Positions 15,039 to 17,613 of a stretch of DNA of 64,000 nt are shown piece by piece. Numbering within the stretch: position 1 is the first letter of the stretch; every line of letters begins with the position of its first letter. A model generated the notes under the pieces. It was given only the letters and a program-made list of their open reading frames with translations. It was not told the origin of the DNA and searched no databases. A program made the position numbers and the translations under genes. Origin of the DNA: Candidatus Heimdallarchaeota archaeon (lineage in GTDB: Archaea > Asgardarchaeota > Heimdallarchaeia > JABLTI01); NCBI GenBank assembly GCA_019058275.1, contig JAHLVW010000094.1, positions 1 to 64,000 on the forward strand. Direction: 5' to 3'.

Positions 15039-15764
15039 TTATCTTCCACCTAAACCGGGGAAGTAATATTTCTTACCTTCAGCATAGCTGGCATCAACTC
15101 GTGCGATTCCAGTATCTCTCATTGATTCAAGAACCCTTTCACATCTTTCTTGAGTCCATCGAGTTTTTAGCAATAATTCTTCAAGAGAAATCCAACCCTT
15201 TCTGGTTGATAATGATAAAACCTCTTCCTGATCATCTGAAAGGTTTGCAGGAATAAATTCTACGATAATTACTCCGCTCTTGAGTTCTTTTAATTTAGGT
15301 ATCAATTTTGCTTCAACGAGGTTTTCAACAGCTTTCACAACATCTTTTGATGCGATTATTTTTCCTGGTCGATCCTTATTGACTAGTAATACTACTTCAC
15401 CCAATGTCATGAGTCCGCCAGTATATTCTTGAGTATCTTTAGCCTTTTCAAGAATTTCTACAGCAAGCCTTTCAAAGAAATCTCCTCCTCCAATTCTATC
15501 CCAGAATGAAGCACTTTCCTTCCATTCATATATTCCCATTTCTTCAGGTAAGCCTAATTCTTGTCTTAGTTCTACAAGTTTTTTATATGAAACTTCATTT
15601 TTCTCGACATCTTTCTTCCATTTCTTCTCAAATTTCTTTAGCTGACCTCTAAGGTCTCGAATGTTTTCAAGCATTCTTTCTAGATCTACTATCATTAATT
15701 CTGCTTCTTTTGCTTTGTATGCTGATTTTATTCTAATTTTCTTCTCGATATCTCTTAAACCCAT
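15039..15764 (-). CDS. vps22: ESCRT-II Vps22/Vps36-like (EAP30/SNF8) protein
   Basis: Recalled SNF8 pattern: FW..G.GDF...LAVEI.E......TGGLMTL.E, DV.KAV..L, P..LS.DQ..VL, W...R...VL.......A.VD; two winged helices. Confidence 0.93.
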   Translation of the reverse strand: MGLRDIEKKIRIKSAYKAKEAELMIVDLERMLENIRDLRGQLKKFEKKWKKDVEKNEVSYKKLVELRQELGLPEEMGIYEWKESASFWDRIGGGDFFERLAVEILEKAKDTQEYTGGLMTLGEVVLLVNKDRPGKIIASKDVVKAVENLVEAKLIPKLKELKSGVIIVEFIPANLSDDQEEVLSLSTRKGWISLEELLLKTRWTQERCERVLESMRDTGIARVDASYAEGKKYYFPGLGGR

Positions 15765-15833: not shown

Positions 15834-16172
15834 TTACATTGGAACTTTTTTATAGTATTTCTTCATCCAATCTTGGATTTTTTCTTTTAGCTTTTTCTCA
15901 TCTTTTTCTTCAAGAGGTAAAGCTTTCTTATCTATGTATTTATTATATAGATACTTCATTTGATTTCTTATTTGAACAGCAAATTGGTGCCTTTTACCAA
16001 ACGTACTTTCACATTCGTATAATGCCGCATCTAGCTCTTCTAAAATAAAATCAGTATCCAGTGCAATCTCAATATAGTTTAGAATCTCTCGTAGATGCCT
16101 AAACAGATTTCGATAAGCTACTGGATTTCCTCGCATTACTCTTGCCTCTAATCTTTTTTTGGATGAAGTCAA
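15834..16172 (-). CDS. Helical protein resembling a stand-alone Vps28 C-terminal domain
   Basis: Co-oriented between vps28 and vps22; aligns by eye to the C-terminal half of the neighbouring Vps28 (see findings). Confidence 0.6.
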   Translation of the reverse strand: MTSSKKRLEARVMRGNPVAYRNLFRHLREILNYIEIALDTDFILEELDAALYECESTFGKRHQFAVQIRNQMKYLYNKYIDKKALPLEEKDEKKLKEKIQDWMKKYYKKVPM

Positions 16173-16202: not shown

Positions 16203-16841
16203 CTATTGATTTCTTAACGATCTTCTAAAGCTGTTTAACCATCTCACAGCTTCAAATTCCAATCGCTTGATTAAACCTTCTTCTAAAACTTCATCAGGAG
16301 GTTTGACAGCTAACATTTCTTTCCAATTGATAATTTCCTTGACTGTTTCTGAATCACTGCCATAGCCTGGATAATCAGCTAATATATCTTCCATTTCATC
16401 AAGATTTGGTACTATTAGTTCTACGCGTGCAATTGAACCTAATCTTAACAAATCAATAAGCTCTATAGCACCTGCAACAAAATCTGCACTCTTAGCTGGA
16501 AGATTTTTCATTTGACTGAATGGCATTGCTACGGTTTCGACAGATTCATCAATTGGTATTGGTGCTACTCCTTCAGCAAAACGCAGTTTCTCTGCACCAT
16601 ATGGATATTTTTCAACTACTTTTTCCCGGTTTAGAAAGCTATCAAGATCAAAACCCTTTTTCTGTAATTGAAAACGTGCCTTGAAAGCATCTCTAATCAA
16701 AGCTCTTAATTGTCTTCGATACATTCCGGGATCTAATATCCCATCAGTAAAACTATGACTTAGATTATCAATTGTAGCAATACAAGAGAATAATTCAGCC
16801 TCTAATTCAAGTTGGGATTTGTTTTTTGACGAATATGACAT
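16203..16841 (-). CDS. vps28: ESCRT-I Vps28-like protein
   Basis: AELFS.I.T.D.L...F..G......Y, A..L...G and I.L.D.LRL......I.P.L motifs, C-terminal four-helix bundle. Confidence 0.9.
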   Translation of the reverse strand: MSYSSKNKSQLELEAELFSCIATIDNLSHSFTDGILDPGMYRRQLRALIRDAFKARFQLQKKGFDLDSFLNREKVVEKYPYGAEKLRFAEGVAPIPIDESVETVAMPFSQMKNLPAKSADFVAGAIELIDLLRLGSIARVELIVPNLDEMEDILADYPGYGSDSETVKEIINWKEMLAVKPPDEVLEEGLIKRLEFEAVRWLNSFRRSLRNQ

Positions 16842-16860: not shown

Positions 16861-17613
16861 TCATAATTCTAATTCTTTATGAACAACATACAATTCCTTA
16901 GTATATTTTCTGTATAATTTAGCAAAATCTACTGGGCTAATTTCACCATCTTTGAATTTCTCATCGAGTGTTGAGAGAAGATCTGCTAACGCAACGTTCT
17001 TAGCTTGTAACATCAATTTACTGCTTCTTTCTTTGTCCTTTGGAAGAACCATATCTAGATTATCTATTCTTGATATTTTTTCATTGGAACCTGTTACTAA
17101 CTCTGCTCTTAATTTTCTCAACTCTTCATCTCTTTCTCTTATTTTTTCTTGAAGAGCTGTTATTGTTTGATTAACATCCTCGACTTGTTGTTGATTCTTT
17201 GTGACGTCCATTTCCTTTGCTTGAACGATTGCTTTTTGTTTGGGTGTTTTTCCAGTTCCTGGGAATTTTGGCGGAACTTTTTCAAACAATTTTTGCAATG
17301 CATGAACAACTTGGTAAACATGTACATCTGGTTTCCATTCATGGGTAATATTTAGCAATACATTTCCATTACGCTCAATATTTGGATGTTGAATGTTTTT
17401 TTCCAAGACAATTACTTTAGGTGGGTACTGTGGATACTTTAATGGTATGAACACTTCAACTGGAATCTTTCTTTCTCCCTGAGGTGTTTTTACGAGTATT
17501 TCTCCTTTCCACCTATTTAGCTCATTACCTATAGGACTAAATCCTACTGTATAGGTAAACATTAATTGCGTTTCTCGGGCTAACGCCATATCGTTAATGG
17601 TATTTCGCGACAA
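16861..17613 (-). CDS. vps23: ESCRT-I Vps23/TSG101-like protein (UEV domain, coiled coil, steadiness box)
   Basis: E2 fold (P..YP..PP, HPN) with the catalytic Cys replaced (GNVLL); coiled coil; C-terminal A..D.L..L...F..GEI....F.K.YR steadiness box. Confidence 0.92.
   Translation of the reverse strand: MSRNTINDMALARETQLMFTYTVGFSPIGNELNRWKGEILVKTPQGERKIPVEVFIPLKYPQYPPKVIVLEKNIQHPNIERNGNVLLNITHEWKPDVHVYQVVHALQKLFEKVPPKFPGTGKTPKQKAIVQAKEMDVTKNQQQVEDVNQTITALQEKIRERDEELRKLRAELVTGSNEKISRIDNLDMVLPKDKERSSKLMLQAKNVALADLLSTLDEKFKDGEISPVDFAKLYRKYTKELYVVHKELEL

Follow-up and report, generated by a model that had tools for sequence, protein, structure and literature searches.

The locus

The window, by which I mean the whole stretch of 64,000 nucleotides from a Candidatus Heimdallarchaeota archaeon that was analysed here, carries between positions 17613 and 15039 a run of four co-oriented genes on the minus strand. 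They encode, in this order, UEV-Vps23, Vps28, a small protein to which I refer as the free CTD (CTD, C-terminal domain), and Vps22 (Table 1).

Table 1. Genes and features of the ESCRT-I/II gene run in the window
Feature	Coordinates	Strand	Evidence and remarks
UEV-Vps23 (TSG101-like, 250 aa)	16861..17613	-	UQ_con 1.3e-15, UEV 6.5e-10, Vps23_core 8e-5; parts: UEV/E2-variant domain, coiled coil, Vps23 core (steadiness box)
Full-length Vps28 (212 aa)	16203..16841	-	PF03997 3.5e-8, profile positions 2-188/188
Complete CTD of Vps28 itself	residues ~113-212 of the 212-aa Vps28		CTD profile matches 113-212 at 2.3e-47
Upstream part of the mechanical ORF, from TTG 16172	16137..16172	-	AGAGG Shine-Dalgarno-like site at 16149..16145; homologs lack this extension
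Free-standing Vps28-CTD paralog (100 aa)	15834..16136	-	ATG 16136..16134 (most likely start), stop 15836..15834
Vps22/EAP30 (ESCRT-II, 241 aa)	15039..15764	-	PF04157 EAP30 4.7e-25; lies downstream of the gene for the free CTD, at 69 nt

In an earlier note on this DNA the free CTD had been taken for a protein of 112 residues, as read from the mechanical ORF at 15834..16172 on the minus strand, which opens with a TTG at 16172. The gene holds up, the length probably does not. All 25 of 25 database homologs are about 100 residues long, with a first residue that is the counterpart of M13, and the ATG at 16136 is preceded, 8 nt upstream, by an AGAGG motif. Because of these homolog N-termini and the position of the AGAGG motif I place the start at ATG 16136, which gives a protein of 100 aa and is most likely the true start rather than TTG 16172; the segment 16137..16172 is then probably a 5' leader, and the 12 residues read from the TTG are probably untranslated. 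The N-terminal half of the free CTD is near-invariant among close relatives, and the closest ortholog pair shows a dN/dS of 0.07; in the other pairs from the same genus or family, pS is saturated (0.70-0.86) at a pN of 0.12-0.25. The ORF is clearly a real gene, and one that is under strong purifying selection.

Relationship to the C-terminal domain of Vps28

The earlier note had also aligned the small protein, in five blocks, with the C-terminal half of the adjacent Vps28. The register of these blocks is the same as that of the profile-profile alignment described below (residues 12-99 of the orphan on residues 122-210 of Vps28), but the pairwise resemblance from which they were drawn is at chance level. 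BLASTP of the free CTD against the adjacent Vps28 gives nothing significant, the best segment (E 0.019) lying in the N-terminal region of Vps28 and the C-terminal block reaching an E-value of 1.4. When profiles of the narrow family (A1 and A3) are compared by hhalign with a profile built from an alignment of 19 full-length Asgard Vps28 proteins, the scores of 19.9 and 21.3 are on a par with the null (shuffle maximum 19.5). Scans of the free CTD against Pfam and NCBIfam return sub-threshold noise only, for instance RRF and Tfb5, and no Vps28 chain turns up among the PDB sequences when these are searched with either the narrow or the wide family profile. At E <= 1, PF03997 is matched by none of the 20 superfamily members; this model describes full-length Vps28 over 188 positions, and a divergent paralog of half that length may lie below its detection.

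These comparisons at null level and the lack of any PF03997 match speak for a first alternative, a generic four-helix bundle which shares no ancestry with Vps28, the resemblance being convergent or compositional. The wider family speaks against it. An exhaustive HMMER search found relatives of 101 aa at 28-33% identity, additional free CTD families emerged when 400 Asgard genomes were scanned in six frames with profiles, and the superfamily alignment (A4) consists of 20 free CTD sequences. Compared by hhalign, A4 and Vps28 match with a probability of 91-93% and a P-value of 1.2e-6 to 2.5e-7 over 83-85 columns. The alignment places residues 12-99 of the orphan onto residues 122-210 of Vps28, with a 3-residue gap after K66, and the matched columns include E17/E127, D36/D148, G47/G161, L75/L186 and W90/W201 (orphan/Vps28). 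The score of 46.3 lies about 15 standard deviations above a column-shuffle null (n=150, mean 12.3, SD 2.3, maximum 19.5), the reversed alignment reaches 18.6 and a comparison with EAP30 17.3. An HHalign comparison with the Vps28 profile had been suggested in the earlier note, and with the wider family (at best P 2.5e-7) it comes out in favour of the proposed relationship.

Two further observations count against a generic bundle. Small syntenic proteins of two families (f10 and f11) match both profiles: they reach 24-35 bits with a non-iterated profile of full-length Vps28, at profile positions 115-205, which correspond to the CTD, and about 1e-16 with the orphan profile, and so bridge the free CTD and Vps28 families. 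In the reciprocal direction, when the free-CTD profile is run against six-frame translations of the 400 genomes, the matches beyond the free copies are mostly C-termini of Vps28 or of UEV-Vps23-Vps28 fusions (21-27 bits), the remainder falling in a small number of other ORFs (65-476 aa). Judged on these alignments, the free CTD is homologous to the CTD of bona fide Vps28, with a significance that needs the profile of the wider family. It is a CTD-only paralog and not the ortholog of Vps28, since it consists of the bundle alone (100 aa, without the N-terminal core) and aligns to residues 122-210 of Vps28 only; the ortholog is the adjacent gene.

Predicted fold

Modelled by AlphaFold2 on the family alignment, the free CTD is predicted to be a compact up-down four-helix bundle of the Vps28-CTD type, about 95 residues long, with helices at 5-23, 28-46, 51-68 and 77-94 (pLDDT 90.1, pTM 0.82). 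Foldseek returned nothing at E <= 1e-3 for this model; the best TM-score in its list belongs to the yeast Vps28 C-terminus (2j9v, TM 0.76/0.76, rmsd 2.4), the others being 0.66 or lower. When the model was aligned, independently of Foldseek, with 48,161 PDB representatives, the yeast Vps28 CTD came first (2j9u_A, Z 12.1, rmsd 2.6, 92/94 residues aligned), followed by CheA P1 at Z 11.2 and by designed bundles at Z 10-11. After re-ranking of the Foldseek list the top three entries are all Vps28 CTDs, 2j9w from Xenopus (Z 12.7), 2j9v from yeast (12.1) and 2g3k (11.9), with the next at 10.2. The Vps28-CTD-like fold that had been expected for this gene is thereby supported, AlphaFold and the structural comparisons placing Vps28 CTDs at the top of the PDB matches.

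The eukaryotic Vps28 CTDs of known structure (2J9U, 2J9V, 2J9W and 2G3K, corresponding to the C-terminal half of PF03997) thus share with the model a predicted four-helix bundle of about 95 residues, at Z 11.9-12.7 and an rmsd of 2.6-3.3 over 92-96 aligned residues. They differ from it in their tether to the Vps28 N-terminal core, which the free CTD does not have, and the identity to the solved structures is 6-10%. Taken by itself the predicted fold is not decisive for homology, because up-down four-helix bundles are common and unrelated ones reach Z 10-11, which is also the third point in favour of a generic bundle; taken together with the sequence evidence, the model is consistent with homology. 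However, that the first three PDB matches should all be Vps28 CTDs, and that vps28 should adjoin the gene in every locus with that side on the fetched DNA, would be hard to reconcile with a bundle of unrelated origin, and with the profile score, the bridging sequences and the reciprocal matches I regard this reading as disfavoured and as very improbable.

The similarity to CheA P1 raised the possibility of an HPt domain. Two histidines, H14 and H50, are invariant, though in the narrow family of the window only; no histidine is conserved across the superfamily and the genomic context is ESCRT and not two-component signalling, and this candidate was rejected.

A further alternative is that the gene encodes a free-standing steadiness-box (SB) subunit of ESCRT-I, resembling the headpiece of Vps37 or Mvb12. 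Such a protein has precedents in the small SB proteins reported from Loki- and Thorarchaeota and in the free-standing SB protein which Hatano et al. 2022 (PMC9192718) describe from ESCRT neighbourhoods, and the best BLASTP segment, at E 0.019, does fall into the N-terminal region of Vps28. The model, however, is predicted to be a closed four-helix bundle and not a helical hairpin, the profile alignment leads to residues 122-210 of Vps28 and not to its N-terminal SB, and the structural matches are CTDs. A hairpin of the Vps23_core/Vps37/Mod_r type was accordingly rejected as a candidate, the free CTD also having no Vps23_core match, and I consider an SB subunit to be hardly credible.

Gene order, distribution and duplication

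In nearly every locus that was mapped, the free CTD gene lies between vps22 and either vps28 or a UEV-Vps23-Vps28 fusion, the latter being the upstream gene, of about 470 aa, in the large family f3. It is often part of a full cluster that also includes genes for Vps25, Vps4, two Snf7 proteins, ubiquitin and E1. Vps28 adjoins the free CTD in every locus for which that side is present on the fetched DNA. The exceptions to the slot are two lineages where vps22 lies at a remove of 1.5-4.6 kb, and one weak match at a contig end without any recognised ESCRT context. Linkage to ESCRT genes and conservation of position in other Asgard loci, both of which the earlier note had left to be checked, are therefore found for the vps28-vps22 slot in nearly every Asgard locus mapped.

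Several individual loci deserve mention. In family f2 (L042:6950-7348:+, genome G010) the free CTD has 132 aa, some 30 of which form a C-terminal tail, and vps22 is on the opposite strand at a distance of 4.6 kb; in some genomes of the same genus as the window (L051, L012, L014, L015) there is a displacement of vps22 from the free CTD gene by about 1.5 kb. At the end of a contig, an ORF of 101 aa (L073:4187-4492:- on G132:C411, family f19) matches the free-CTD profile weakly, at 1.7e-8. No neighbouring ORF on this 4.5-kb contig matches the ESCRT queries, and the ORF may represent a free Vps28-C outside its usual slot. In family f6, which is without a free CTD, one locus (L068, G067:C1:3965000-3976000) contains an inverted gene of 447 aa between vps28 and vps22, which has no match to the ESCRT queries.

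In seven Asgard families every genome sampled has the free CTD (11/11, 1/1, 31/31, 1/1, 4/4, 19/19 and 2/2), and 70 genomes in all carry it, Vps28 having been found in 261 of the 400 Asgard genomes. In the families that do not have it, among them three from the class to which the window belongs, vps22 comes straight after vps28, at a distance of 6-22 nt. As many Asgard families show this direct succession, the free CTD is accessory rather than core, and in general dispensable for a working ESCRT-I/II operon.

Another alternative is that the small gene is one half of a split vps28, with the free CTD as the C-terminal part and the steadiness-box half encoded by a separate gene. According to Makarova et al. 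2024 (mBio, PMC10936438), Asgard archaea can indeed have one gene for the Vps28-like SB domain and another for Vps28_C. Here, however, the adjacent Vps28 is full length (PF03997 2-188/188) and has a CTD of its own, as have 50 of the 50 neighbouring Vps28 or fusion proteins examined, and the free and the tethered CTDs fall into two separate clades. The complete CTD of the neighbouring Vps28 and the separation of the clades refute a split gene for this lineage, and more generally I give this reading next to no chance. As all 50 neighbours keep their CTD and a search of the window's genome finds a single Vps28, the free CTD is an extra paralog and not the half of a split gene.

When 18 free and 18 tethered CTDs are placed in one maximum-likelihood tree, the two kinds are parted by a single branch (support 100/99). 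The two subtrees show the same grouping by family, and the branches are longer on the free side. This topology fits a single old duplication of that part of vps28 which codes for the CTD, followed by co-inheritance of both copies and a faster evolution of the free one. The proline P145, invariant in the tethered Asgard CTDs, corresponds to a glutamate, E33, that is invariant in the free copies. The conserved surface of the free CTD includes E17, E33, Y67 and W90 and, in the lineage of the window, an N-terminal motif GNPVAYRNL. The small protein had been called more basic than its tethered counterpart, which is true in the window (pI 9.1 vs 4.6) but is a trait of this lineage that does not extend to the family, as the pI of the free copies ranges from 4.5 to 9.8 and net charge is not conserved. 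Because the free copies evolve faster and do not conserve their net charge, their binding surface may have been altered.

Known counterparts

In public records the free CTD proteins are listed as 'hypothetical protein' or without a name, and the earlier note knew of no description of such a protein. This claim to novelty does not hold up. Makarova et al. 2024 report that some Asgard genomes encode Vps28-C separately, alongside a full vps28, and that the Vps28-C domain occurs in many domain contexts; from the contact between Vps28-C and ESCRT-II in eukaryotes they inferred a similar interaction in Asgard archaea. A table of gene neighbourhoods in that article, as far as it is available, lists for the Heimdallarchaeote AB_125 an EAP30/Vps22 gene (cog.002769), then cog.004115, described as 'Vps28 protein, C-terminal region', and then a fusion of E2 and Vps23 core. 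The asCOGs originate in Liu et al. 2021 (Nature 593:553). A free Vps28-C is therefore a kind of ESCRT component that has already been described for Asgard archaea.

The small protein of the window is like cog.004115 in that both are small stand-alone Vps28 C-terminal regions and that the latter occupies in AB_125 the same slot as in the f3 loci, the two being likened by the slot and the description that the available part of the table gives. They differ in sequence, the family of the window being 26-31% identical to the AB_125-type (f3-like) proteins. The same Vps28-C domain also occurs in cog.003822, which, according to the accessible part of the source, combines an E3 UFM1-ligase domain, Zn-binding domains and adaptin-C with Vps28-C. 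In these proteins the domain is fused to cargo- or adaptor-type modules and mostly encoded elsewhere, whereas the free CTD is bare and part of the ESCRT-I/II operon. The best match of the model in the ESM Atlas (TM 0.75 over 92 residues) is to a 788-aa Asgard cluster of E3-UFM1-ligase/DDRGK/PCI proteins, which fits the cog.003822 architecture ending in a Vps28 C-terminal region, as described there.

Open frames of 456-476 aa were observed in other Asgard families, in which the C-terminal 90 residues or so match the free-CTD profile at E-values of 7e-6 to 8e-4. Among them are L052:5-1423:- (genome G288) and L053:2243-3613:+ (G172), and G290:C19:2942-3211 was also listed. The first two were scanned with Pfam and have no Pfam domain. 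Frames of this type may be undescribed multidomain proteins that end in a Vps28-C-like bundle.

With the kind of protein already described, what is added here is homology evidence with controls, the single old duplication and co-inheritance with vps28, and a map of the Asgard families that have the free CTD against those in which vps28 abuts vps22. The latter provides natural comparisons, with and without the gene, for biochemistry.

Possible role

In eukaryotes, the tethered CTD of Vps28 is the surface of ESCRT-I that contacts ESCRT-II or Vps20. To my knowledge, Asgard archaea are without Vps36 and its GLUE/NZF modules. [quoted passage not shown] The interactions of Asgard ESCRT-I and ESCRT-II were tested by Hatano et al. 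2022, and 'yet undetermined factor(s)' were left as the bridge between the two; in the portions of that article available there is no mention of a free CTD protein.

I consider it very probable that the gene of the window encodes a stand-alone Vps28-C paralog that arose by one old duplication and has been kept beside a full Vps28, and that would act as an accessory subunit of ESCRT-I/II. The tree indicates that the CTD-coding part of vps28 was duplicated once, long ago, and the free copy has since been retained between vps28 and vps22, beside the complete Vps28, in a subset of the Asgard lineages. From the contacts that the tethered CTD makes with ESCRT-II and Vps20 in eukaryotes, and from the gene order, I infer that the product may belong to the cargo-recognition arm of ESCRT-I/II as an accessory subunit. 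Its putative partners would be those of the tethered CTD, that is Vps22/Vps25 or a Vps20-like ESCRT-III protein, or else the tethered CTD itself, and by binding them it would tune the hand-off from ESCRT-I to ESCRT-II. Complex prediction was applied to the pair of Vps22 (alignment of 21 rows) and the free CTD (19 rows used) only, and yielded an ipSAE of 0.01-0.02 (mark 0.32), a result that counts neither for nor against binding.

A more specific version holds that the free CTD is a stoichiometric subunit which either sits on one of the two equivalent sites that a symmetric (Vps22)2-Vps25 ESCRT-II of Asgard archaea would offer or pairs with the tethered CTD, so that the ESCRT-I/II junction would become asymmetric. 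I regard this as unlikely. If it were true, the free CTD would, in function, be a forerunner or an analogue of the module for Vps28 binding which eukaryotes have put on Vps36, and it would supply the 'yet undetermined factor' of Hatano et al. 2022.

Alternatively, the free CTD could be a decoy: by taking up the site on ESCRT-II or ESCRT-III at which the CTD binds, it would restrict the coupling to ESCRT-I rather than promote it. A CTD without a tether to the ESCRT-I headpiece, dispensable in the many lineages where vps28 abuts vps22 and evolving faster than its tethered counterpart, would suit such a role. However, all genomes sampled from seven families have kept the gene, co-oriented, within the ESCRT-I/II run and under strong purifying selection, a pattern of retention as compatible with a stoichiometric subunit as with a regulator. 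A decoy thus seems possible, with the odds nevertheless against it.

The ESCRT-II side and the rest of the genome

In the earlier note the free CTD had been proposed as a possible stand-in for a Vps36 GLUE/NZF bridge, on the ground that the Vps22-like protein has no such domain. For the adjacent Vps22 this is correct: a domain scan finds GLUE and NZF modules to be absent, and the NZF finger of yeast Vps36, which binds the CTD, has no counterpart in it. The genome, however, holds two further EAP30 paralogs away from the window, at G000:C61:24476-25165 (L066:4476-5165:+) and on G000:C94 (L065:4286-5335:-), so that there is more to the ESCRT-II side than can be read from the window alone. One of these EAP30 (Vps22/36) paralogs has 229 aa and matches PF04157 at 3.3e-11. 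The other has 349 aa, with a PF04157 match at 1.2e-6 over residues 128-329, and begins with a helical extension of about 125 aa that has no Pfam match; this protein could be a Vps36-like partner.

On yet another contig (G000:C2), a Vps4 gene (L067:5422-6612:+, 396 aa, with MIT, AAA and Vps4_C) adjoins a Vps25 gene (L067:6737-7549:+, PF05871, 270 aa). With these two encoded on a different contig, this genome keeps the cargo arm of ESCRT-I/II apart from the Vps25/Vps4 arm. In families f3 and f12, the ESCRT-I/II, Vps25 and Vps4 genes are located in a single cluster. Finally, in family f4 an ORF that matches Vps4 (L070:6464-8674:+ on G043:C149) measures 736 aa, roughly double the 380-400 aa that are usual, which suggests either a fused or extended Vps4 or a read-through by the simple ORF caller.
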